From Vectrevirus PDP21P6, in sequence record OZ035822.1: a stretch of DNA of 44,789 bases. The stretch is one strand, 5' to 3'. The notes under the pieces were generated by a model that worked only from the letters and a program-made list of their open reading frames with translations, did not search any database and had not been told where the DNA came from. A program made the translations under genes and the position numbers. Positions 30 through 43,669 of the stretch are shown in pieces; the first letter of the stretch is position 1, and each line of letters opens with the position of its first letter.

Positions 30-329
30 GTGAGCGTACATAACAAACATGCAGCTACAGAAGACGAGGTTGGCATTCTGCATGGTGCTATTACCAAAAT
101 CTTCAATAAGAAAGCACAGGCAATACTGGACACTATAGAAGAAGACCCTGATGCAGCATTACATTTAGTGTCTGGTAAGGATATTGGTGCGATGTGTAAG
201 TGGGTTCTTGATAACGGCATTACCGCCACACCTGCTGCACAGCAGGAAGAGTCCAAGTTATCTAAGCGCCTCAAGGCTATCCGAGAGGCATCCAGTGGCA
301 AGATTATTCAGTTTACAAAAGAGGAGTGA
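30..329 (+). CDS. putative terminase small subunit (T7 gene 18 position)
   Basis: 99-aa ORF, GTG start with AGGAG RBS at 17-21; sits between holin and large terminase as in T7; no motif recognised, call is positional. Confidence 0.45.
   Translation: MSVHNKHAATEDEVGILHGAITKIFNKKAQAILDTIEEDPDAALHLVSGKDIGAMCKWVLDNGITATPAAQQEESKLSKRLKAIREASSGKIIQFTKEE
121..143 (+). promoter_or_regulatory. phage RNAP promoter embedded in terS coding sequence
   Basis: CAATACTGGACACTATAGAAGAA matches the genome-wide promoter core, predicted +1 G at 138. Confidence 0.55.
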
Positions 330-330
330 T

Positions 331-774
331 ATGCATAGATGGTGTGAATCTCAAGGTTATACCATCTTACCTTCTGGTGTCATCCTTTCAAAGGGTGGCA
401 CCCCTCTCAAACCATTCAAGGCGGGTAGGGGTTATTTAGCAGTTAAAATTAAAAATAAAGAAGGTAAATGGCGTAATGTCTATGTTCATCAATTAGTGGC
501 TTATAAGTATTTACCTAAAACTAATAATGAAGTAAACCACAAAGACGGCGATAAGCACAACAATGATGTTAGCAACTTGGAGTGGGTAACAAGAAGCGAG
601 AATAACTATTTAAAATGCAATGGAAATGATAGGAGTGCCTTAAATAGCTATTTAGCAAGATTAAAAGATTGCTTCTTGCAAGGTAAGGGTGTAGCAGAAA
701 CCGCTAGACTTACTGGTAAAAGTGAACCAAGAGTTTCTTCTCTCTTTAAGGAGTGGCGAAATGGCAAAGGCTAG
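331..774 (+). CDS. HNH homing endonuclease (HNH_3-like)
   Basis: ATG 331 after GAGGAG RBS; motif VNHKDGDKHNNDVSNLEWVTRSENN plus C-terminal HTH-like tail; inserted between terminase subunit genes, 3' end overlaps terL start. Confidence 0.75.
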   Translation: MHRWCESQGYTILPSGVILSKGGTPLKPFKAGRGYLAVKIKNKEGKWRNVYVHQLVAYKYLPKTNNEVNHKDGDKHNNDVSNLEWVTRSENNYLKCNGNDRSALNSYLARLKDCFLQGKGVAETARLTGKSEPRVSSLFKEWRNGKG

Positions 775-4355: not shown

Positions 4356-4434
4356 ATAAGATAGTGCCGTTCTTTTGAGCGGCCTATTACTAGCCAATCT
4401 TCATGGTGAGGGTTGGGAAGTAATAGGAGATAAA

Positions 4435-6342
4435 ATGGCTAAATTAACCAAACCTAATACTGAAGGAATCTTGCATAAGGAAGACTCTTTGTATGAGTAC
4501 CTTGATGCGAGAGAGAGTATAGTTTTAACATCAAAGCCGTTTGGTGCAGTAGGTGATGCTACTACTGATGATACGGAGGTTATAGCTGCTTCACTAAACT
4601 CTCAAAAAGCTGTCACAGTCTCAGACGGTGTATTCTCTAGCTCTGGTATTAATAGTAATTACTGTAACTTAGACGGTAGAGGTAGCGGGGTGCTAAGTCA
4701 CCGTTCCAGTACAGGTAACTACTTAGTATTTAACAATCTACGTGCAGGTCGCTTAAGTAATATTACGGTAGAGAGTAATAAGGCGACTGATGATACTCAG
4801 GGGCAGCAGGTATCTCTTGCTGGTGGCAGTGATGTTACTGTAAGTGACGTTAACTTCTCAAACGTTAAAGGTACTGGTTTCAGTTTAATAGCATACCCTA
4901 ATGGTGCGCAACCTAATGGGCTTATGATTAAAGGCATTCGAGGTAGCTACTCTGGCTATGCTACTAATAAGGCTGCTGGATGCGTACTTGCTGACTCCTC
5001 AGTTAACTCTCTCATAGATAACGTCATTGCTAAGAGCTATCCTCAGTTCGGAGCTGTAGAGCTGAAAGGTACAGCCAGTTATAACATAGTAAGTAATGTT
5101 ATAGGGGCAGATTGCCAGCATGTAACTTACAACGGCACTGAAGGGCCAATAGCTCCTTCTAATAACCTTATCAAGGGGGTGATGGCTAATAACCCTAAGT
5201 ATGCAGCGGTTGTTGCAGGAAAAGGAAGTACGAACTTAATCTCAGACGTGCTCGTAGATTACTCAACTTCTGATGCTAGGCAGGCTCATGGTGTTACCGT
5301 AGAAGGATCTGATAACGTCATAAATAATGTGCTTATGTCAGGATGTGATGGTACTAACTCTTTAGGACAAGGGCAGACTGCTACAATTGCACGCTTTATA
5401 GGTACAGCTAATAACAACTATGCGTCTGTATTTCCTAGCTACAGTGCTACAGGTGTTATTACCTTCGAACCCGGCTCTACCCGTAACTTCGTAGAGGTAA
5501 AGCACCCTGGCAGGAGAAACGACCTTCTCAGTTCTGCTAGTACTATTGACGGTGCAGCTACTATTGACGGCACTAGTAATAGTAACGTAGTGCACGCACC
5601 TGCATTAGGACAGTACATAGGTAGTATGTCAGGTAGGTTCGAATGGCGGATTAAGTCCATGTCACTCCCTTCAGGCGTTCTTACTTCTGCTGATAAGTAC
5701 AGAATGCTTGGAGATGGTGCTGTGTCATTAGCTGTAGGTGGGGGCACTTCTTCTCAAGTTCGCCTATTTACTTCTGATGGTACTTCTCGGACAGTGTCCC
5801 TCACCAACGGTAACGTGCGTCTTTCTACCAGTAGCACAGGCTTTTTGCAGTTAGGCGCTGATGCAATGACCCCAGACAGTACTGGTACATACGCATTAGG
5901 TTCCGCCAGCCGAGCATGGTCTGGCGGTTTTACTCAAGCAGCATTCACTGTTACCTCAGATGCTCGGTGTAAAACAGAACCTCTTACTATCTCAGATGCC
6001 TTACTGGATGCTTGGTCTGAAGTTGACTTTGTGCAGTTTCAGTATTTGGATCGTGTTGAGGAGAAGGGTGCAGACTCAGCTAGATGGCACTTCGGTATCA
6101 TCGCTCAGCGAGCTAAGGAGGCTTTCGAACGTCACGGTATAGATGCACATCGCTATGGCTTCTTGTGCTTCGACAGTTGGGATGATGTATACGAGGAAGA
6201 TGCCGATGGCTCTCGTAAACTGATTACACCAGCAGGTTCCCGCTACGGTATTCGTTACGAGGAAGTGCTGATATTAGAGGCTGCGTTGATGCGGAGGACT
6301 ATTAAGCGTATGCAGGAAGCACTAGCTTCCCTGCCTAAGTAA
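4435..6342 (+). CDS. tailspike 1 (beta-helix depolymerase-like) with C-terminal intramolecular chaperone domain
   Basis: ATG 4435 with AGGAGA RBS; N-terminal GAVGDATTDDT pectate-lyase-like signature; C-terminal SDARCK...HFGIIAQRAKEAF segment resembles peptidase S74 autocleaving chaperone. Confidence 0.8.
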   Translation: MAKLTKPNTEGILHKEDSLYEYLDARESIVLTSKPFGAVGDATTDDTEVIAASLNSQKAVTVSDGVFSSSGINSNYCNLDGRGSGVLSHRSSTGNYLVFNNLRAGRLSNITVESNKATDDTQGQQVSLAGGSDVTVSDVNFSNVKGTGFSLIAYPNGAQPNGLMIKGIRGSYSGYATNKAAGCVLADSSVNSLIDNVIAKSYPQFGAVELKGTASYNIVSNVIGADCQHVTYNGTEGPIAPSNNLIKGVMANNPKYAAVVAGKGSTNLISDVLVDYSTSDARQAHGVTVEGSDNVINNVLMSGCDGTNSLGQGQTATIARFIGTANNNYASVFPSYSATGVITFEPGSTRNFVEVKHPGRRNDLLSSASTIDGAATIDGTSNSNVVHAPALGQYIGSMSGRFEWRIKSMSLPSGVLTSADKYRMLGDGAVSLAVGGGTSSQVRLFTSDGTSRTVSLTNGNVRLSTSSTGFLQLGADAMTPDSTGTYALGSASRAWSGGFTQAAFTVTSDARCKTEPLTISDALLDAWSEVDFVQFQYLDRVEEKGADSARWHFGIIAQRAKEAFERHGIDAHRYGFLCFDSWDDVYEEDADGSRKLITPAGSRYGIRYEEVLILEAALMRRTIKRMQEALASLPK

Positions 6343-33549: not shown

Positions 33550-33583
33550 GCCCTATCTACCTTGCGTAGGTAGGGTTCTTTTT
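33550..33583 (+). terminator. T-phi-like intrinsic terminator after capsid gene
   Basis: CCCTATCTACC-ttgcg-TAGGTAGGG then TTCTTTTT; near-identical design to 24008-24041. Confidence 0.7.
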
Positions 33584-33596
33584 GTTAGGAGGATTC

Positions 33597-34334
33597 ATGC
33601 CTGTAATTAAACAAACCAGTAAAGTAGGACACATGATGGAAGATGTGGCCTTCCAGATTATTGATAGCAAGCTTGAAGCGGTCAACTTGTGTATGCGAGC
33701 TATTGGTCGTGAGGGTGTGGATTCTCTCGACTCAGGCGATCTTGATGCAGAAGATGCAAGTAAGATGATTGATATTGTATCCCAGCGCTTCCAGTATAAT
33801 AAAGGCGGTGGCTGGTGGTTCAATCGTGAACCTAACTGGCAGCTTGCACCAGACACGAACGGTGAGATTAACTTGCCTAATAACTGCCTAGCTGTATTGC
33901 AGTGCTACGCATTGGGTGAGAAGAAAGTGCCTATGACTATGCGTGCAGGTAAGCTTTACTCCACATGGAGTCACACCTTTGATATGCGCAAGCATGTTAA
34001 TGCTAATGGCATGATTCGTCTTACCTTACTCACCTTACTACCCTACGAGCATCTACCTACAAGTGTAATGCAGGCTATTGCCTATCAATCTGCTGTAGAG
34101 TTTATTGTGTCTAAGGATGCAGATCAGACTAAGCTAGCCACTGCGCAGCAGATAGCCACTCAGCTTCTTATGGATGTACAATCTGAGCAAATGTCACAGA
34201 AGCGATTAAACATGCTGGTACATAACCCCACTCAGCGTCAGTTTGGTATCATGGCTGGTGGCTCTCAGAATGTACCTGCTTACTCTCATTCACCTTATGA
34301 AAGTTGGGCGCTCCGTCCGTGGGAGGATCGTTAA
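33597..34334 (+). CDS. tail tubular protein A (gp11-like)
   Basis: ATG 33597 with AGGAGG RBS; 245 aa; conserved position after capsid. Confidence 0.8.
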   Translation: MPVIKQTSKVGHMMEDVAFQIIDSKLEAVNLCMRAIGREGVDSLDSGDLDAEDASKMIDIVSQRFQYNKGGGWWFNREPNWQLAPDTNGEINLPNNCLAVLQCYALGEKKVPMTMRAGKLYSTWSHTFDMRKHVNANGMIRLTLLTLLPYEHLPTSVMQAIAYQSAVEFIVSKDADQTKLATAQQIATQLLMDVQSEQMSQKRLNMLVHNPTQRQFGIMAGGSQNVPAYSHSPYESWALRPWEDR

Positions 34335-36736
34335 TGGAAGTACAAGGTTCATTAGGTAGACAAATCCAAGGGATTAGCCAGCAGCCGCCAGCGGTACGCT
34401 TGGATGGTCAGTGCACAGCTATGATTAATATGATACCTGATGTAGTGAATGGTACTCAATCACGCATGGGTACAACTCATATTGCAAAGATACTTGATGC
34501 GGGGGCTGATGACATGGCTACTCATCATTATCGCAGAGGTGATGGTGATGAAGAGTATTTCTTCACGTTGAAGAAAGGACAAGTTCCTGAGATATTTGAT
34601 AAGTATGGGCGCAAATGTAATGTGACTTCACAAGATGCACCTATGACTTACTTAACTGAAGTAGTCAACCCAAGGGAAGATGTGCAATTTATGACTATTG
34701 CAGATGTAACCTTTATGCTTAATCGAAGAAAGGTAGTTAAAGCTCGTACTGATAAATCACCAAAGGTTGGAAATAAGGCGATTGTCTTCTGCGCCTATGG
34801 CCAATATGGGACTACTTATAAAATTATAATTGATGGCAATGTAGCAGCTACACGTACCACCCCTGACGGTGGTGAAGCGGGTCAAGTTGTAAATATAAGA
34901 ACAGAAGACATTACAAACCACCTTTATGATAGTTTACAGCAATGGAGTGGTATTAATGCCTACAACATCCAGAAAGATGGAACAAGTATCTTTATTGAAA
35001 AGAAAGATGGTAGCTCTTTTAATATTACTACAGAAGATGGTGCAAAAGGTAAGGACTTAGTAGCCATAAAGAACCGTGTAGCCTCTACCGACCTTCTACC
35101 CTCCCGTGCACCTGAAGGTTACAAAGTGCAAGTATGGCCTACTGGAAGTAAACCGGAGTCACGTTATTGGCTGGAAGCAGAGCCAAAAGAGGGGAATTTA
35201 GTATCATGGCAAGAGACAGTAGCGGCGGATGTTTTACTTGGCTTTGATAAAGGGACCATGCCGTATATTATTGAGCGTACAGGTATCATTGATGGTATTG
35301 CTCAATTTAAGATTAGGCAGGGTGATTGGGAAGACCGCAAGGTGGGGGATGACCTCACTAACCCTATGCCGTCTTTCATTGATGAAGAAGTTCCTCAGAC
35401 AATTGGCGGAATGTTCATGGTGCAGAACCGTTTATGCTTTACAGCAGGTGAAGCTGTCATTGCATCACGCACTTCCTACTTCTTTGATTTCTTTCGTTAT
35501 ACGGTTATCTCTGCATTGGCAACTGACCCATTTGATATTTTCTCAGATGCTAGTGAAGTCTACCAGCTAAAACATGCAGTGACCTTAGATGGCGCTACCG
35601 TGTTGTTCTCTGATAAGTCACAATTCATACTGCCAGGCGATAAGCCTTTAGAGAAGTCAAATGCACTGCTTAAGCCTGTTACAACATTTGAAGTGAACAA
35701 TAAAGTGAAGCCAGTAGTAACTGGTGAATCGGTAATGTTTGCCACTAATGATGGTTCTTACTCTGGTGTACGAGAGTTCTATACAGACTCTTATAGTGAC
35801 ACTAAGAAGGCACAAGCAATCACAAGTCATGTGAATAAACTCATCGAAGGTAACATTACCAACATGGCAGCAAGCACCAATGTCAACAGGTTACTTGTCA
35901 CTACCGATAAGTATCGTAACATAATCTACTGCTACGATTGGTTATGGCAAGGCACAGATCGTGTACAATCAGCATGGCATGTATGGGAGTGGCCTATGGG
36001 TACAAAGGTGCGCGGTATGTTTTACTCTGGTGAATTACTTTATCTACTCCTTGAGCGAGGTGGTGGCGTCTATCTGGAGAAGATGGACATGGGGGATGCA
36101 CTGACCTATGGTTTGAATGACCGCATCCGAATGGATAGGCAAGCAGAGTTGATCTTCAAGCATTTTAAAGCAGAAGATGAGTGGAGATCTGAACCACTTC
36201 CTTGGACTCCTACTAACCCAGAACTTTTGGATTGCATCTTAATAGAAGGGTGGGATTCATATATTGGAGGTTCTTTCCTATTCAAATATAACCCTAGTGA
36301 TAATACCTTGTCTACAACCTTTGATATGTATGATGATGACCGCGTAAAAGCGAAGGTTATTGTTGGGCAGATTTACCCTCAAGAGTTTGAACCTACACCT
36401 GTAGTCATTAGAGACAGGCAAGACCGTGTATCCTATATTGATGTACCTGTTGTGGGATTAGTTCACCTTAATCTTGATATGTATCCTGATTTCTCCGTGG
36501 AGGTTAAGAATGTGAAGAGTGGTAAAGTACGCAAGGTGCTAGCGTCAAACCGTATAGGTGGTGCTCTCAACAATACAGTAGGTTATGTTGAACCAAGAGA
36601 GGGTGTCTTCAGATTCCCACTGAGGGCTAAGAGTACGGATGCTGTTTATCGTATTATTGTAGAATCACCTCACACATTCCAGCTCCGCGATATTGAGTGG
36701 GAAGGGAGCTACAATCCAACCAAAAGGAGGGTCTAA
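34334..36736 (+). CDS. tail tubular protein B (gp12-like)
   Basis: 800 aa, start overlaps gp11 stop (TAATG). Confidence 0.85.
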   Translation: MEVQGSLGRQIQGISQQPPAVRLDGQCTAMINMIPDVVNGTQSRMGTTHIAKILDAGADDMATHHYRRGDGDEEYFFTLKKGQVPEIFDKYGRKCNVTSQDAPMTYLTEVVNPREDVQFMTIADVTFMLNRRKVVKARTDKSPKVGNKAIVFCAYGQYGTTYKIIIDGNVAATRTTPDGGEAGQVVNIRTEDITNHLYDSLQQWSGINAYNIQKDGTSIFIEKKDGSSFNITTEDGAKGKDLVAIKNRVASTDLLPSRAPEGYKVQVWPTGSKPESRYWLEAEPKEGNLVSWQETVAADVLLGFDKGTMPYIIERTGIIDGIAQFKIRQGDWEDRKVGDDLTNPMPSFIDEEVPQTIGGMFMVQNRLCFTAGEAVIASRTSYFFDFFRYTVISALATDPFDIFSDASEVYQLKHAVTLDGATVLFSDKSQFILPGDKPLEKSNALLKPVTTFEVNNKVKPVVTGESVMFATNDGSYSGVREFYTDSYSDTKKAQAITSHVNKLIEGNITNMAASTNVNRLLVTTDKYRNIIYCYDWLWQGTDRVQSAWHVWEWPMGTKVRGMFYSGELLYLLLERGGGVYLEKMDMGDALTYGLNDRIRMDRQAELIFKHFKAEDEWRSEPLPWTPTNPELLDCILIEGWDSYIGGSFLFKYNPSDNTLSTTFDMYDDDRVKAKVIVGQIYPQEFEPTPVVIRDRQDRVSYIDVPVVGLVHLNLDMYPDFSVEVKNVKSGKVRKVLASNRIGGALNNTVGYVEPREGVFRFPLRAKSTDAVYRIIVESPHTFQLRDIEWEGSYNPTKRRV

Positions 36737-37458
36737 TGGCTATAGGTTCAGCCGTTATGGCTGGTATGTCTTCTATTGGTAGTATGTTTGCAGGTAGCGG
36801 TACAGCAGCCGCTGCTGGAGGTGCTGCCGCAGGTGGCGGAGGTTTGCTAGGTTCATTAGGTGGCTTCCTAAGCGGTTCCACTGCTGGCTTCTCTAATGCG
36901 GGTCTTCTTGGTGCTGGCCTTCAAGGGTTAGGATTGATTGGTGATCTCTTTGGTGGAAGTGATGAAGCCAAGGCCATGAAGAAAGCACAAGAAGAGCAAT
37001 GGCGGCAGCAGCTTATTGCTACACAAGAGGCGTACAAGACAGTGGCAGACGCAGAGCGTTCTGCTGCTAAACAATATCATGCAGATGCAATAAGCAATCA
37101 GGCTTCACTACTACAGCAGCGAGCACAGGTTGCATTACTAGCAGGTGCTACTGGTACTGGTGGTAACTCTGTATCTTCTATGCTGAATGACTTAGCAGCA
37201 GAGGGCGGGAGGAACCAGAGTACAATTATTGATAACTATGAGAATCAGAAGATTAACTTCACTAATCAGCTTAAGTCCATCCAGCGAGGTGGGCAGATGC
37301 AGATGCGTGAGTTTAAGAAACCTTCTGCTGTGAGCACCTTGGTTCAAGGTATCCCAAGTCTGGCTTCTGCTTATGTAACTGGTAGCAAGTCGGGTATGGC
37401 TTTAGGTAAAGCTCTAACGGATTCTCGTACATACTCATCTGGAACAAGAGGTATTTAA
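36736..37458 (+). CDS. internal virion protein (gp14-like)
   Basis: 240 aa, Gly/Ala-rich N-terminal region; start overlaps upstream stop. Confidence 0.6.
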   Translation: MAIGSAVMAGMSSIGSMFAGSGTAAAAGGAAAGGGGLLGSLGGFLSGSTAGFSNAGLLGAGLQGLGLIGDLFGGSDEAKAMKKAQEEQWRQQLIATQEAYKTVADAERSAAKQYHADAISNQASLLQQRAQVALLAGATGTGGNSVSSMLNDLAAEGGRNQSTIIDNYENQKINFTNQLKSIQRGGQMQMREFKKPSAVSTLVQGIPSLASAYVTGSKSGMALGKALTDSRTYSSGTRGI

Positions 37459-40406
37459 TGGCAATTGAGCGACAAGCAGTACAAGGTCTGCCACAAGTGC
37501 AGGCCACTTCTCCTAATGTCATGACCTTTGCACCTCAACAAGTGGGAGGTGTGGAGGCGGGCGTAGCTTCTACCTCCGGTAGTCGATTTATCGAAGACCT
37601 TATTCGAGCAGCCAGCAGTGTAGCTGATGTTACCACTGGTATCCTTAATCAGAAGATTGAGGAGGATAAGGTTGTTCAAATGGAACGGGCATATAATGGA
37701 TTAATGCCTTCTGAGGATGCAACTCGTGGTGGCGCTCGTGCTAACATGCTTGTCAAAGCTCAACTGCTAGCTAATGATGAAGCAGCACGAATGAAAGACA
37801 TGGCTACTCGTTTCCAAGGAACAGATGACGAGTGGACACAACTCATGGTTGACTCTCGTAATGAGATGCAGAATAAGCTGTTCCAGCAATACCCTGAGTT
37901 GCAAGGTGACAAAGATACTATGCGTATGGTCACTAATGTCTTCCAAGAACAGCAGCCTCAGATTTGGGCTACACGAACCCAGCATAAACTTGACCGTGAA
38001 CAAGCAGACCGTGAGGACACCTTTGACGGGCGAGTGGCTTCTACTTGGGATTCTAGTATTGACCCAGAGGCTTCTGGTTATGCCCTACAGGAGCGAATCC
38101 GCGAGGGGTTTACTCAAGGGCTATTACCTGAGCAGATGCATAAGAAGCTGGTAGAGCGAGCTATTTCACTTGCTCAGGGTGGTGATATTAGCATGGCTGA
38201 AGCCTTGAAGTACGTGAAGGACGATAAGGGTGTTTCTGTCTATGCTAAGAATCCGCAGCTTATCACAGCTATCACTAATGGTAATGCAGTTTGGGCTAGG
38301 AATAATGTTGCTGATGTGACTCGCATGTCTTTTGAAGTCAAAGAGTCCTATCTTGCAGGTGACTTGACGGATGAAGAATTACTGGAGCGAGCACAGCACA
38401 TTAATAGCCTGACAGGGAACTCTGTCTTCTCTAATCCAGAACTAGAAGCACTGATGCGACAACGAGCTAAGCAGAATGCAGAGCTAGGTGCAATGCAGGA
38501 TATGCGACGTGAACTTTACTCTGATCGCATGACTGGCTTCCAAGGTAAGACAGATAAAGAGAAGAAAGCTTACGTTGACGTTATCAAACAAGATAGCCAA
38601 CTTTATGCAGACCAGCAAATCAAACAACGTGGCTTGGACCCTTACAGTCAAGAGGCTGAAGCTATTCGTGGTGCAGTGGAAGTGCAGCGCCTGCAATTCA
38701 TGAACTCCAAAGGCTTAGTGGATGATACCTTTGAGTCTCGTATCAAAGCCATGGAGTCTATGCTATCGCCTGAGCACTTTGCCAGTGGCGAACCACAGGA
38801 GTTAATGACTATTCGTCAGTTGTGGGAACAGTTACCAGAAGAAAGCCGAGGTGTCTTTGGTGATACGGTGAATGGCTATATGGATAACTACAACACTGCA
38901 TTACAAATGGGAGAGACGCCTTTGCAGGCTGCAAGGTTTGCCCGTGAAGCACAGCAGAAATTCTCTCGTACTGAGAAAGAAACCAAGAAGTTCAACTCAG
39001 CTATTGGAGATGCACTGGATGAGGTATCGGGTGCTGGCTGGTTTGATGGTAAAACCGAAGTGTCTGACTTAGGTAAAGCTATTGCAGAAGAAGAGTTACG
39101 AGCTAAGGCCAATATGCTGTGGTCTAGCGGTATGCGTAACATGGATTCCATCAAGAAGGCTTTAATTACTTGGGGCAATAAACGCTACACTCAATCAGAG
39201 GATGCAAAGACTTCCGGTGGTTATTTCATTAAAGGTGATTACACTTCTGCATCTGACATGCTTATGTCTGTTGGGAAAGGTGTAAACCCTACCGATGTAC
39301 CTCTGGCGCTTGGTAGGTATGTAGAAACACAAATGCCAGAATTGAAGAAGGAACTTCAAGAGTGGGAAACTAAGGATGATGTATACATTGATTACAATGA
39401 ACAGAAAGGTACTTTCGTGATTCGTGCTGGTGCAGCAGGTCGCCCTCTTTCTGGAGTAATCCCTGTCACCTCTTTAGATACCACTTCACTGCTAGACTCT
39501 GCCTATCAGAAGAAAGTAGAAGAACGAGATAAAGGTGAATATGTTCACCCATATCGTACAGATATCGGTACACAAGAACCTATGCCAGCTAAGCCAACTG
39601 CCAAGGATATTGGTAAATTTGGACTAGCTAATTTCCTCATGTCTTCTGCCTTTGCTTCTGGTGAGAATCTACCTTCTAACTTCGAGATTAACTATAGAGG
39701 CAATATGCAACAATTCTATGACAAGCTAGCTATGGATGAGAATAAAGATAAAGTTGGCTTTAATAAGGCAACTGGAACCTTTACTCCATATAAAGACGCT
39801 CGCGGTGAGTCTATCGGTTACGGTCATTTCTTAACGGAAGAAGAGAAGCGAAACGGGTATATTAAGATTGGTGATGAACTAGTTCCCTATCGAGGGTCTA
39901 TGTCTCAGCTTACAGAGAGCAAGGCTCGCGCTCTTATGGAGCAAGATGCTAAGAAGCATGTGCCTCCTACTCGTGACTGGAAGATTCCGTTTGACCAGAT
40001 GCATCCTGCACAGCAACGTGGCTTGATGGATTTAACCTACAATTTAGGTAAAGGTGGAATCCAGAACTCACCGCGTGCTCTTGCTGCATTCAAAGCTGGT
40101 AAGCTTACGGAAGGCTTTATCGAAATGCTGGGCACTGCATCAAGTGAAGGTAAGCGTATTCCTGGCCTACTGAAGCGACGCGCTGAGGCATACAATATGG
40201 CATCTGCTGGTGGTGTGCCTAAGATTACCGAAGTGGAGACTCGTGAAGATGGCTCCATGTGGGTTAGGTTTGGTGGACCTATGCCAGCAGGTTCTGTCTC
40301 GGCATGGACTCATAAACGTATTGGCGAGGATGGTTGGTATCAGGTTTATGAGTCTGCACCTACCAAGTTAGCTAAAGGTTCTAAGGTAGGTAAAGTTAAG
40401 TTGTAG
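37458..40406 (+). CDS. internal virion protein (gp15-like) with C-terminal GH24-like lysozyme domain
   Basis: 982 aa; C-terminal segment YKDARGESIGYGHFLT ... LMDLTYNLGKGG ... GLLKRRAEAYN resembles T4-type lysozyme. Confidence 0.8.
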   Translation: MAIERQAVQGLPQVQATSPNVMTFAPQQVGGVEAGVASTSGSRFIEDLIRAASSVADVTTGILNQKIEEDKVVQMERAYNGLMPSEDATRGGARANMLVKAQLLANDEAARMKDMATRFQGTDDEWTQLMVDSRNEMQNKLFQQYPELQGDKDTMRMVTNVFQEQQPQIWATRTQHKLDREQADREDTFDGRVASTWDSSIDPEASGYALQERIREGFTQGLLPEQMHKKLVERAISLAQGGDISMAEALKYVKDDKGVSVYAKNPQLITAITNGNAVWARNNVADVTRMSFEVKESYLAGDLTDEELLERAQHINSLTGNSVFSNPELEALMRQRAKQNAELGAMQDMRRELYSDRMTGFQGKTDKEKKAYVDVIKQDSQLYADQQIKQRGLDPYSQEAEAIRGAVEVQRLQFMNSKGLVDDTFESRIKAMESMLSPEHFASGEPQELMTIRQLWEQLPEESRGVFGDTVNGYMDNYNTALQMGETPLQAARFAREAQQKFSRTEKETKKFNSAIGDALDEVSGAGWFDGKTEVSDLGKAIAEEELRAKANMLWSSGMRNMDSIKKALITWGNKRYTQSEDAKTSGGYFIKGDYTSASDMLMSVGKGVNPTDVPLALGRYVETQMPELKKELQEWETKDDVYIDYNEQKGTFVIRAGAAGRPLSGVIPVTSLDTTSLLDSAYQKKVEERDKGEYVHPYRTDIGTQEPMPAKPTAKDIGKFGLANFLMSSAFASGENLPSNFEINYRGNMQQFYDKLAMDENKDKVGFNKATGTFTPYKDARGESIGYGHFLTEEEKRNGYIKIGDELVPYRGSMSQLTESKARALMEQDAKKHVPPTRDWKIPFDQMHPAQQRGLMDLTYNLGKGGIQNSPRALAAFKAGKLTEGFIEMLGTASSEGKRIPGLLKRRAEAYNMASAGGVPKITEVETREDGSMWVRFGGPMPAGSVSAWTHKRIGEDGWYQVYESAPTKLAKGSKVGKVKL

Positions 40407-40417
40407 TACCTAACTCA

Positions 40418-40446
40418 AGGCTTGTCTCACATGTGAGACAGGTCTT
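40418..40446 (+). terminator. terminator-like hairpin containing palindrome copy 6
   Basis: AAGGCTTGTCTCACATGTGAGACAGGTCTTT (core GTCTCACATGTGAGAC at 40424-40439). Confidence 0.5.
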
Positions 40447-40471: not shown

Positions 40472-43400
40472 ATGGAACAAGACATTAAGACTAATTGGGC
40501 TGGATATGTCCAGTCTACTCCTGAGCCGTTTTCTATTGAGGCGGCTCCGGTATCGGCTCCTACGATACGCCAGCGTAATGAGTTACAAGAGCAAGTTCTT
40601 GAAGCTAAAGCTGACGCTGATATCTTAGGTGCTGTAGGTGCTGCCTTCCAGAATGAGTGGTTGGCATTCGGAGGCAAGCGGTGGTATGACCGTGCCACTG
40701 CTGATTTCACACCTCAACCAGACTTTGAGATACAACCTGAGCAACGTGAAGCACTACGTTTCAAATATGGTACGGATATGATGCAGACAATCACTGAGGG
40801 TGTTCGTTCTGAGGATGAATTGAACTTCCGTATTCAGAATGCTGATGAAGACCTTGAGCGCAATAAGCGCATTGCTCAGGCTGGCTGGGTTGGCTCTGTG
40901 GCGACGATTGGCGCTGCTGTGCTTGACCCTGTGGGATGGGTTGCCTCTATTCCAACCGGTGGTGCCGCTAAAGTTGGACTCGTAGGCCGTGCTGTGCGTG
41001 GCGCTATCGCCGCTGGCGTAAGTAATGCCGCTATTGAATCCGTATTGGTCCAAGGTGACATGACTCGTGATTTAGATGACATTATGGTAGCACTAGGTTC
41101 CGGTATGGCTATGGGTGGCGTTATTGGCGCTGTAGCGCGTGGTAGGGCCGCTAAGCTCAGTGAGCAAGGTGATGACAGGGCTGCGAACGTTGTGCGCAGT
41201 GCAGACGCAGGGGACCGCTATGTGCGTGCTGTTGCTGATGATAGTATCGGTGCGATGCGTGTTAAGGGTGAAGAGGTACTCACTGAGGGTGCATTTGATA
41301 TCTCTAGCAAAGGTGAAGATTTGCTGAAAACCCTACAGCGGGAAGGTAATGCAATTGATATGACCCCTCGCCGCTGGGCCGGAACTCTGTCTGCCCTTGG
41401 TACTGTCGTACATTCCTCTCAGGATGCAAGTGTACGCGGCCTTGGTGCTCGCCTGTTTGAGTCTCCGCAAGGCTTAGGTATGCAGAAGGCCTCTGCTAGT
41501 CTCATGCAGAATACTAATTTGAACCGTCTGAAATCTGCTGATATGAACCGCTTCAATGATGGGTTTGATTTGTGGCTTAAAGAGAATAATATCAATCCAG
41601 TAGCAGGACATACCAACTCTCACTATGTGCAGCAATATAATGAGAAGGTATGGGAAGCTGTACGCATCGGTATGGATGAGTCTACGCCTAAGTCTATCCG
41701 TATGGCAGCAGAGGGTCAGCAAGCTATGTATCGTGAAGCATTAGCATTACGGAAGCGCTCTGGTGAAGCTGGTTTTGAAAACATTAAAGCGGATGATAAG
41801 TATATGCCTGATATCTTTGACACTATGAAAGCTCGCCGTCAATTTGATAGGATAGGAAAGGATATAGATAAAGAAGACATCATCGAACTTTTCTCTCGTG
41901 CCTACCAGAATGGCGCTCGTAAGATTCCAAAGGAAGCAGCAGATGAGATTGCACGAGCACAGGTAAATCGCGTTGCTGATGCTACCTTAACTGGAAATCT
42001 TAGTTTTGAAAAGGCAATGTCAGGTCAGACTAAGGCAGAGTATGAAGCTATCATGCGTAAGGCAGGCTTCAGTGATGAAGAAATTGAAAAGATGGTAGAA
42101 GCTCTGGATAACAAAGAAACCAGAGATAACATCTCTAACCGAGCTAAAATGAGTTTAGGATTAGATGTTACTCAAGAGTACAATGGCATTCGTATGCGTG
42201 ACTTCATGAATACCAACGTGGAAGAGCTAACAGATAACTATATGAAGGAAGCAGCAGGTGGCGCTGCATTGGCTCGCCAAGGCTTCTCTACCTATCAGGC
42301 TGCACTTAATGCAATTGACCTTGTAGAGCGAAATGCACGAAACGCGGCTAATGGTAGCAAGGCTAGTTTGGCATTAGATGAAGAGATTCGTCAGATGCGA
42401 GAAGGTCTTCGCCTGATTATGGGCAAGTCGATTGATGCAGACCCACAAGCTATATCTACTAAGATGATGCGTCGTGGTCGTGATATCACAGGTGTGCTTC
42501 GCTTAGGTCAGATGGGCTTCGCACAGCTAGGTGAACTTGCTAACTTCATGGGTGAGTTTGGTATTGCTGCCACCACTATGGCTTTAGGTAAGCAATTCCG
42601 CTTCACCTCTAAGGCGTTGCGTAATGGCGATGGCTTCTTTCGAGATAAGAATTTAGCTGAGGTTGAGCGAATGGTAGGTTACATCGGTGAGGATAACTGG
42701 CTAACAACTAAGGGTGCACGTCCTGATGAATTTGGTGATGTAACCACAGTAAGAGGGATGATGGCTCACTTCGACCAATCCATGAACTCAATACGTCGTG
42801 CTCAAACCAACCTATCACTCTTCCGCATGGCACAGGGTTCTCTGGAGCGAATGACCAATAGGCAAATAGCTTTGTCTTTCATTGACCACCTTGAAGGCAA
42901 GAAGATTATTCCTCAGAAGAAACTGGAGGAACTTGGTCTTACTCAGGAGTTCATGACTAATCTACAGAAGCACTATGATGCTAACTCTAAAGGTTCTGGC
43001 TTGCTTGGCTTTGATACAATGCCTTATGCCATGGGTGAAACTTTAGCTAATGCTATTCGTCGTAAGTCAGGTCTAATTATCCAACGTAACTTCATTGGTG
43101 ATGAAGGTGTCTGGATGAACAAAGCACTAGGTAAGACATTTGCACAGCTTAAGTCATTCTCTCTTGTATCTGGTGAGAAGCAATTTGGTCGAGGGATTCG
43201 CCACGATAAAATTGGTCTTGCTAAGAAGACAGCTTACGGGTTTGCTTTGGGTTCAATAGTGTATGCGGCAAAAGCCTATGTGAACTCTATTGGGCGAGAA
43301 GACCAAGATGAATATCTGGAAGAGAAACTATCCCCTAAAGGGTTGGCTTTTGGCGCTATGGGTATGATGAGTACAACTGCTGTGTTTAGCTTAGGTGGAG

Positions 43401-43669
43401 ACTTCTTAGGCGGCCTAGGTGTTCTCCCTTCTGAGTTAGTACAATCCCGTTATGAGGCTGGCTTTCAGACTAAGGGTTTGATAGACCAAATACCACTAGT
43501 AGGTGTTGGTCAAGATGCATATCGTTTAGCAGATTCTATAACTAAATATGCAGAGGGTGATACAGAAGGTGTAGATGTGGCACGTAGGGCTTTACGCTTA
43601 GTGCCTCTAACTAATGTAATAGGAATCCAGAACGCACTGCGTTATGGCTTAGATGAACTGGAGGATTGA
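40472..43669 (+). CDS. internal virion protein (gp16-like)
   Basis: ATG 40472 with GGAGGG RBS; 1065 aa with Gly/Ala-rich segments; T7 gene 16 position. Confidence 0.75.
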   Translation: MEQDIKTNWAGYVQSTPEPFSIEAAPVSAPTIRQRNELQEQVLEAKADADILGAVGAAFQNEWLAFGGKRWYDRATADFTPQPDFEIQPEQREALRFKYGTDMMQTITEGVRSEDELNFRIQNADEDLERNKRIAQAGWVGSVATIGAAVLDPVGWVASIPTGGAAKVGLVGRAVRGAIAAGVSNAAIESVLVQGDMTRDLDDIMVALGSGMAMGGVIGAVARGRAAKLSEQGDDRAANVVRSADAGDRYVRAVADDSIGAMRVKGEEVLTEGAFDISSKGEDLLKTLQREGNAIDMTPRRWAGTLSALGTVVHSSQDASVRGLGARLFESPQGLGMQKASASLMQNTNLNRLKSADMNRFNDGFDLWLKENNINPVAGHTNSHYVQQYNEKVWEAVRIGMDESTPKSIRMAAEGQQAMYREALALRKRSGEAGFENIKADDKYMPDIFDTMKARRQFDRIGKDIDKEDIIELFSRAYQNGARKIPKEAADEIARAQVNRVADATLTGNLSFEKAMSGQTKAEYEAIMRKAGFSDEEIEKMVEALDNKETRDNISNRAKMSLGLDVTQEYNGIRMRDFMNTNVEELTDNYMKEAAGGAALARQGFSTYQAALNAIDLVERNARNAANGSKASLALDEEIRQMREGLRLIMGKSIDADPQAISTKMMRRGRDITGVLRLGQMGFAQLGELANFMGEFGIAATTMALGKQFRFTSKALRNGDGFFRDKNLAEVERMVGYIGEDNWLTTKGARPDEFGDVTTVRGMMAHFDQSMNSIRRAQTNLSLFRMAQGSLERMTNRQIALSFIDHLEGKKIIPQKKLEELGLTQEFMTNLQKHYDANSKGSGLLGFDTMPYAMGETLANAIRRKSGLIIQRNFIGDEGVWMNKALGKTFAQLKSFSLVSGEKQFGRGIRHDKIGLAKKTAYGFALGSIVYAAKAYVNSIGREDQDEYLEEKLSPKGLAFGAMGMMSTTAVFSLGGDFLGGLGVLPSELVQSRYEAGFQTKGLIDQIPLVGVGQDAYRLADSITKYAEGDTEGVDVARRALRLVPLTNVIGIQNALRYGLDELED

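Follow-up and report, generated by a model that had tools for sequence, protein, structure and literature searches.

Virion-borne peptidoglycan hydrolases decide how podovirus DNA crosses the cell wall, and the 44,789-nucleotide (nt) sequence of Vectrevirus PDP21P6 (record OZ035822.1; this whole stretch is called the window below) raises the question of which ejection protein carries such an enzyme. A previous sequence-only reading, made without database searches, had assigned a GH24-like lysozyme domain to the C-terminus of a gp15-like internal virion protein of 982 amino acids (aa), encoded by the open reading frame (ORF) at 37458..40406 on the plus strand. It had further proposed that the peptidoglycan-degrading activity resides here on a different ejection protein and belongs to a different enzyme family than in phage T7. 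Our analysis agrees with both proposals. The arrangement of a lysozyme on gp15 is real and has already been described and annotated in close relatives; it has been tested since 2004 and is well known for the SP6/K1-5 group and phiKMV.

Identity and fold of the lysozyme domain

Judged by sequence and profile comparisons, the lysozyme likeness of the domain is well above chance. Pfam family PF00959 (Phage_lysozyme) matched residues 776-910 with E=2.3e-10 and 41.3 bits, against a gathering cut-off of 22.3, and covered positions 9-124 of the 125 profile positions. T4 lysozyme was found among PDB sequences by phmmer (E=5.5e-4), by hmmsearch with a profile of 31 homologues (E=1.4e-4), and by hhalign with the profile of the C-terminal region (90.8% probability, E=1.2e-6). 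The domain was also matched by phrog_7 and phrog_31077. A tblastn search of the window with T4 lysozyme missed the domain; the similarity emerges only in profile and structure comparisons, or when phmmer is run the other way round. All motifs that had led to the original assignment were present in the translation, namely YKDARGESIGYGHFLT at residues 778-793 (nt 39789-39836), NLGKGG at 862-867 and GLLKRRAEAYN at 903-913.

Structure prediction and profile comparison of the C-terminal region by AlphaFold2, Foldseek and hhalign likewise resulted in a lysozyme fold. The AlphaFold2 model was derived from 31 full-length homologues with identities from 98% down to 37%, and reached a mean predicted local distance difference test (pLDDT) score of 76 overall and of ~80-92 across residues 740-982. 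This alignment-based model was used instead of a single-sequence prediction of the C-terminal 268 aa, which was unusable (pLDDT 41.6). Foldseek related the model to T4 lysozyme and GH24 muramidases with probabilities of 0.97-1.0 and target-normalised template modelling scores (TM-scores) of 0.55-0.66, and the α+β fold of the T4 lysozyme type that characterizes GH24 and PF00959 was present in the predicted structure. The placement of the domain required a correction. It was originally drawn at 39690-40215, corresponding to residues 745-919, and described as C-terminal. It does lie near the C-terminus, but it stops at residue ~917 and is followed by a tail of 65 residues (918-982), so that it does not form the extreme end of the protein.

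Catalytic residues

The positions of the catalytic Glu, Asp and Thr of GH24 enzymes could be assigned, with Ser taking the place of Thr. In a MAFFT alignment that comprised family members, phiKMV gp36C and T4 lysozyme, E761 fell on E11 of T4 lysozyme and on a glutamate of phiKMV gp36. By this alignment E761 is the putative catalytic glutamate. In the AlphaFold2 model, helix 746-762 carries this residue at its C-terminal end, just like E11 in helix A of T4 lysozyme. In the phmmer alignment, D780 was placed on D20 and S785 on T26 of T4 lysozyme. Among the 31 homologues, with identities down to 37%, E761 was conserved in 31, D780 in 29, and Ser or Thr at position 785 in 28. A 10-residue insertion between E761 and the YKD strand was found in the MAFFT alignment to be specific to the SP6/K1-5 family. 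The retained Asp favours hydrolase rather than transglycosylase chemistry.

The carrier is a gp15-like protein

The assignment of the carrier to the gp15 type was also borne out. The top three PDB matches obtained by Foldseek with the full model were all T7 gp15 chains, 9jyy_G (E=8.3e-6; "core proteins of mature T7"), 7k5c_A (E=7e-5; "T7 DNA ejectosome periplasmic tunnel") and 7eyb_A (E=5e-3), each with a probability of 0.99-1.0 and ~700 aligned columns. Residues 1-91 were predicted to be disordered or were modelled with low confidence, and Pfam gave no family for the body of the protein (residues 1-744) at a threshold as loose as E<=10. The gp15-type membership of the protein holds by its predicted fold and by synteny only. 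The gene follows the tail tube genes and is flanked by a gp14 homologue on one side and by a gp16 homologue (phrog_342) on the other; the genome encodes three internal core (ejection) proteins, and this is the second of them.

Over its full length the protein matches phrog_4290 of the PHROGs database ('lysozyme domain-containing protein'), and the closest protein cluster, P0004, is 98% identical. The orthologue in the RefSeq genome of K1-5, the product of gene 35 (YP_654136.1), carries the annotation "lysozyme domain-containing protein". It lies between an "internal virion protein" and the product of gene 36, with tail tube genes upstream and a tail-fibre adaptor downstream. Location in the capsid core and ejection are probable for the protein of the window by the literature on its orthologues.

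The gp16-like protein lacks the T7-type transglycosylase segment

The N-terminal lytic transglycosylase domain of T7 gp16 was reportedly described by Moak and Molineux in 2000. A corresponding segment was sought in the gp16-like protein encoded downstream. This protein was aligned to phrog_342, the T7 gp16 family, at profile positions 155-1227 only, and neither an SLT domain nor any other Pfam domain was found in its 1078-aa ORF. BLASTP against T7 gp16 aligned residues 898-1024 to 1100-1253 (E=1.2e-7) and 102-491 to 275-699 (E=0.03). These collinear matches are offset by ~170-230 residues, and therefore an N-terminal segment is missing in the gp16-like protein. Residues 1-230 of T7 gp16 gave nothing in a tblastn search of the whole window (E>4), and searches of PDB and NCBIfam with the gp16-like protein yielded nothing useful. 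According to these comparisons, the gp16-like protein is devoid of the ~160-residue N-terminal SLT/lytic transglycosylase domain of the T7 type. The proposed move of the muralytic activity to another ejection protein and another enzyme family is supported, with a GH24 domain on the gp15-like protein and the T7-type segment absent.

Proposed function and alternative interpretations

In analogy to T7, the 982-aa protein would be packaged in the capsid core and, at infection, be ejected through the tail after the gp14-like protein, to refold into a periplasmic tunnel. The GH24 domain carried on this tunnel protein would cut the glycan strands of the peptidoglycan locally in the periplasm. The ejectosome of gp14-like, gp15-like and gp16-like proteins could then span the wall, the gp16-like protein would reach and cross the inner membrane, and DNA translocation would follow. 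The GH24 domain would in this way do the job of the N-terminal lytic transglycosylase domain of T7 gp16, which is absent here, and the final lysis of the host would fall to a separate M15 peptidase endolysin and a holin. We consider this account as a whole, from core packaging to the passage of the gp16-like protein, to be very probably correct; the order of the periplasmic events is inferred by analogy. Our own data cover the identity and predicted fold of the domain, the conservation of its catalytic residues, the synteny, the lack of a transglycosylase segment in the gp16-like protein and the presence of a separate endolysin.

Annotations of related proteins suggest other functions. GH24 is a common endolysin family, phrog_7 and phrog_31077 are both named 'endolysin', and the orthologue in MZ997841.1 is labelled 'putative endolysin', which would fit a role of the domain as the enzyme that lyses the host from within when infection ends. 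This role is very improbable in view of the fusion of the domain to a 740-residue body of the gp15 fold encoded in a gp14-gp15-gp16 structural operon. Moreover, the genome encodes its own 118-aa M15 endolysin, the K1-5 orthologue of which is annotated as endolysin and adjoins a holin, and orthologues of the GH24 carrier are classed as virion-associated enzymes and not as endolysins in the review literature, as tabulated in PMC5380687. The M15 protein is likely the lysis-from-within enzyme; the GH24 domain is therefore neither needed for this process nor the sole muralytic enzyme of the phage. Many relatives carry the names 'baseplate hub', 'baseplate hub subunit / lysozyme' or 'base plate hub protein', as expected for a tail lysozyme on the tail exterior resembling T4 gp5, and T4 gp5 (2z6b_A) was indeed matched by Foldseek. 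This match was weak (probability 0.69) and confined to the lysozyme domain, whereas the rest of the protein matched T7 gp15 core and tunnel structures. Since in addition the gene is placed between the gp14-like and gp16-like genes and podoviruses of the T7 supergroup have no baseplate, such a function is hardly conceivable and is even less probable than the role as endolysin. Both labels appear to have been transferred on the basis of the lysozyme domain and are misleading; neither agrees with the gp15 fold of the body or with the position among core-protein genes. The present genome represents one further near-identical example of the arrangement, and its practical value is in annotation, given the misleading 'baseplate hub' and 'endolysin' labels of many relatives.

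A catalytically dead remnant of a lysozyme with a structural or peptidoglycan-binding role would be compatible with the Ser that replaces T26, with the insertion of 10 residues between the β-hairpin and the presumed catalytic Glu, and with the only moderate matches to T4 lysozyme. The retention of E761, D780 and S/T785 in distant homologues and the lysozyme activity of SP6 gp36 and K1-5 gp35 reported in the secondary literature (PMC5380687, in its Table 2, and PMC8954989) make a loss of activity very unlikely. Several points nevertheless weigh against an active, ejected gp15-type muramidase. The assignment of E761 depends on the MAFFT alignment across the insertion, and the local alignments of Pfam and hhalign stop short of it; hydrolysis and transglycosylation are not separable by sequence. 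Global TM-scores to T7 gp15 were low (0.18-0.29), which is weak although expected for a protein with multiple conformations, and sequence similarity to T7 gp15 was undetectable by phmmer and the family profile against PDB and by BLASTP (E>1). Finally, that the protein is part of the virion and cleaves peptidoglycan is deduced from secondary citations on orthologues that are ~96-98% identical.

Distribution among related phages

The complete ORF of the gp15-like protein matched 64 phage records in a megablast search, all of them Vectrevirus or K1-5/K1E-like coliphages except for one Klebsiella phage record. Over all 2949 nt the ORF is 95.7% identical to its counterpart in phage K1-5, and identity to Vectrevirus T147P9 is 96.1%. 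Other Vectrevirus assemblies align from their position 1 with the first 900 nt of the window. Because of this match and the identity of the ORF to the K1-5 group, the window is a complete K1-5/K1E-like Vectrevirus genome (Autographiviridae, Molineuxvirinae).

With the C-terminal 248 residues as query, tblastn found 172 phage records, of which 151 showed a query coverage of at least 80%. They comprised SP6-like phages of Escherichia, Salmonella, Klebsiella, Proteus, Lelliottia, Pectobacterium and Erwinia; no phiKMV-like phage was among the 172. Identity in this region was 62.7% to SP6 and ~42% to the Erwinia phages, and the near-full-length matches listed were all located in genomes of ~43-46 kb. 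At the protein level, a homologue search with the C-terminal 248 aa yielded 3 fragments, and the full-length protein was used as query instead. The same ~980-aa architecture was then found in 30 protein clusters with identities down to 37%. A precomputed PF00959 match was recorded for 24 of these 30 full-length clusters and for P0001, and JGI gives P0013 the name 'GH24 family phage-related lysozyme'. Some of the relatives are named "lysozyme domain-containing protein" or "internal virion protein B", others "baseplate hub" or "putative endolysin".

C-terminal tail and spacer hairpin

Three features of this locus are not stressed in the literature consulted and may be regarded as small additions, namely the β-rich tail, the 10-residue insertion after the Glu and a 13-bp hairpin in the spacer downstream of the gene. 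The tail is predicted to contain strands at residues 923-928, 934-938, 960-964 and 978-981. Positions I923, D931, G932, S933, M934, F938, G959 and W960 of the tail are invariant in the 31-homologue alignment, and no Pfam match was obtained for residues 918-982 even at E<=10. It is possible that the tail is a docking or regulatory module.

Tail and insertion may also mark an independent fusion of gp15 and lysozyme in the SP6/K1-5 lineage, convergent with that of the phiKMV-like phages and not derived from a common fused ancestor. This notion is based on the observation that the two lysozyme domains have just the catalytic motif in common and that the tail has no match in family libraries; we regard it as speculative and rather doubtful. 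If it were true, tail or insertion might silence the enzyme in the capsid by docking or auto-inhibition, or tie it to gp16 in the tunnel.

The hairpin is located in the 65-nt spacer between the stop codon of the gp15-like gene and the likely start of the gp16-like gene. It is the same in K1-5, where the aligned 91-nt stretch differs by one 1-nt indel in the Shine-Dalgarno region. The hairpin could serve as RNA processing site, attenuator or stabiliser.

Gene neighbourhood

Coordinates of the features are compiled in Table 1. The tail tubular proteins are encoded at 33582..36736, upstream of the gp14-like gene, and phrog_805, the family matched by the latter, consists of internal virion proteins. 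For two genes the start differs from that of the program-made ORF. The ORF of the gp14-like gene begins with GTG 36697; ATG 36736 is the likelier start and gives 240 aa as in K1-5 (723 nt). For the gp16-like gene, with an ORF from GTG 40433, ATG 40472 is likelier and is preceded by the Shine-Dalgarno sequence GGAGGG. A small ORF of 73 aa at 40037..40258 on the minus strand was dismissed as purely mechanical, being located within a strongly conserved plus-strand gene.

Table 1. Features of the ejection protein locus and the endolysin gene in the window
Feature	Coordinates	Strand	Evidence or remark
gp14-like internal virion (outer-membrane pore) protein	36736..37458	+	PF24072 T7_gp14 E=1.2e-32; phrog_805 E=2.2e-52
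gp15-like ejection (periplasmic tunnel) protein, 982 aa, with sub-terminal lysozyme domain	37458..40406	+	orthologue of K1-5 gene 35, K1E gp35 and SP6 gp36
N-terminal, mostly α-helical body, residues 1-744, predicted T7 gp15 fold	37458..39689	+	AlphaFold2 and Foldseek
GH24 (T4-lysozyme-type) muramidase domain, residues ~745-917	39690..40208	+	Pfam, profile, predicted fold
E761, inferred catalytic glutamate, corresponding to T4 lysozyme E11	39738..39740	+	MAFFT alignment; invariant in 31/31
YKDxxGxSxGYGH motif, codons from D780 (T4 lysozyme D20) to S785 (T4 lysozyme T26)	39795..39812	+	phmmer alignment
Conserved C-terminal tail, residues 918-982 (65 aa), predicted small β-rich module	40209..40403	+	AlphaFold2 pLDDT ~83-92
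Perfect 13-bp hairpin with GGCUUGUCUCACAUGUGAGACAGGUC core	40417..40446	+	RNA fold -24.5 kcal/mol, z=-3.5 versus shuffles
gp16-like internal virion (inner-membrane/cytoplasmic) protein	40472..43669	+	phrog_342 E=1.1e-248
Peptidase_M15 endolysin, 118 aa	3402..3758	+	PF08291 E=2e-32; phrog_894 endolysin E=5.7e-45

Two further regions of the genome were recorded. An HNH homing endonuclease ORF (184-774, plus strand; PF13392 and phrog_59) is located upstream of the large terminase gene (722-2659) and overlaps it. The 900-nt stretch that holds this ORF was covered to at least 80% in just 17 of 77 related records, which indicates a variable insertion. Phage VEc3 has the ORF annotated as an HNH endonuclease; between the terminase subunits of K1-5 no such gene is annotated. 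The lysis region is followed by two tailspike or tail-fibre genes on the plus strand. The gene at 4375-6342 is a full-length match to phrog_14895, and its product contains an intramolecular chaperone domain of the endosialidase type (Peptidase_S74). The gene at 6428-8224 matches phrog_18162. This dual-tailspike arrangement is typical of K1-5-like phages and sets capsule specificity.

Comparison with known systems

The closest known counterparts are K1-5 gp35 (YP_654136.1), K1E gp35 and SP6 gp36, which are products of the same gene. The K1-5 protein has the same length and the same neighbours, and a length of 982 aa is also given for K1E gp35 by Swanson et al. Compared to these proteins there is no difference of substance, just a sequence divergence of a few percent. 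Table 2 of Latka et al. 2017 (PMC5380687) lists SP6 Gp36 and K1-5 YP_654136.1 as virion-associated lysozymes with reference to Moak & Molineux 2004, and phiKMV Gp36 as virion-associated with reference to Lavigne 2004 and Briers 2006. According to this table and PMC8954989, the zymogram test of the lysozyme activity of SP6 gp36 and K1-5 gp35 was published in 2004; this information is second-hand. The same two sources refer to Scholl et al. 2004, Moak & Molineux 2004 and Leiman et al. 2007 for the lysozyme domain of the K1-5, K1E and SP6 internal virion proteins, and to Leiman 2007 and Moak & Molineux 2004 for their location in the capsid core and their ejection. A lysozyme-like C-terminus of SP6 gp36 is mentioned in PMC4837284, which cites Dobbins 2004 and Scholl 2004.

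In a 2026 survey of Autographivirales, 127 of 205 genomes contained a lysozyme or transglycosylase domain in the ejectosome (bioRxiv 10.64898/2026.05.18.726046). The domain was located at the N-terminus of gp16 in 86 cases, at the C-terminus of gp15 in 31 (~24%) and in central gp15 in 10. The combined length of the three ejection proteins was 2378±162 aa in that study, a range that includes the ~2287 aa (240+982+1065) found here. The equivalent domain of a phiKMV-like phage was also seen there by cryo-EM. That the muralytic module is found on gp15 instead of gp16 illustrates well the mosaic evolution of ejection proteins, a point already made for SP6, K1-5, K1E and phiKMV. Hydrolases of this kind are mined as thermostable enzybiotics, e.g. 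phiKMV gp36C.

Ar-KM gp42, from the same bioRxiv preprint, and phiKMV gp36 (gp36C lysozyme; Lavigne 2004, Briers 2006) likewise are gp15-like tunnel proteins with a C-terminal T4-lysozyme-like domain, and in these phages, too, the muralytic domain is not borne by the gp16 homologue. The domain occupies a comparable place in the protein, at residues ~740-881 there and ~745-917 here. In contrast, sequence likeness to phiKMV gp36 is confined to the YKDxxGxSxGxGH motif (BLASTP E=0.004, 15 residues). phiKMV gp36 remains below detection by PF00959 at E<=0.01, and it has neither the 10-residue insertion nor the 65-residue β-rich tail.

T7 gp16 shares the proposed role of a peptidoglycan cutter that is borne into the periplasm on an ejection protein. 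In T7 the carrier is gp16 and the enzyme an SLT-type lytic transglycosylase at its N-terminus, whereas here the carrier is the gp15-like protein and the enzyme a predicted GH24 muramidase towards the C-terminal end. The free-standing GH24 endolysins T4 lysozyme, P22 lysozyme and DLP12 RrrD comprise ~150-165 aa and act from within at lysis. In contrast to these, the domain described here is part of a 982-aa virion protein, contains the 10-residue insertion after the Glu and shares 18-24% identity with them.

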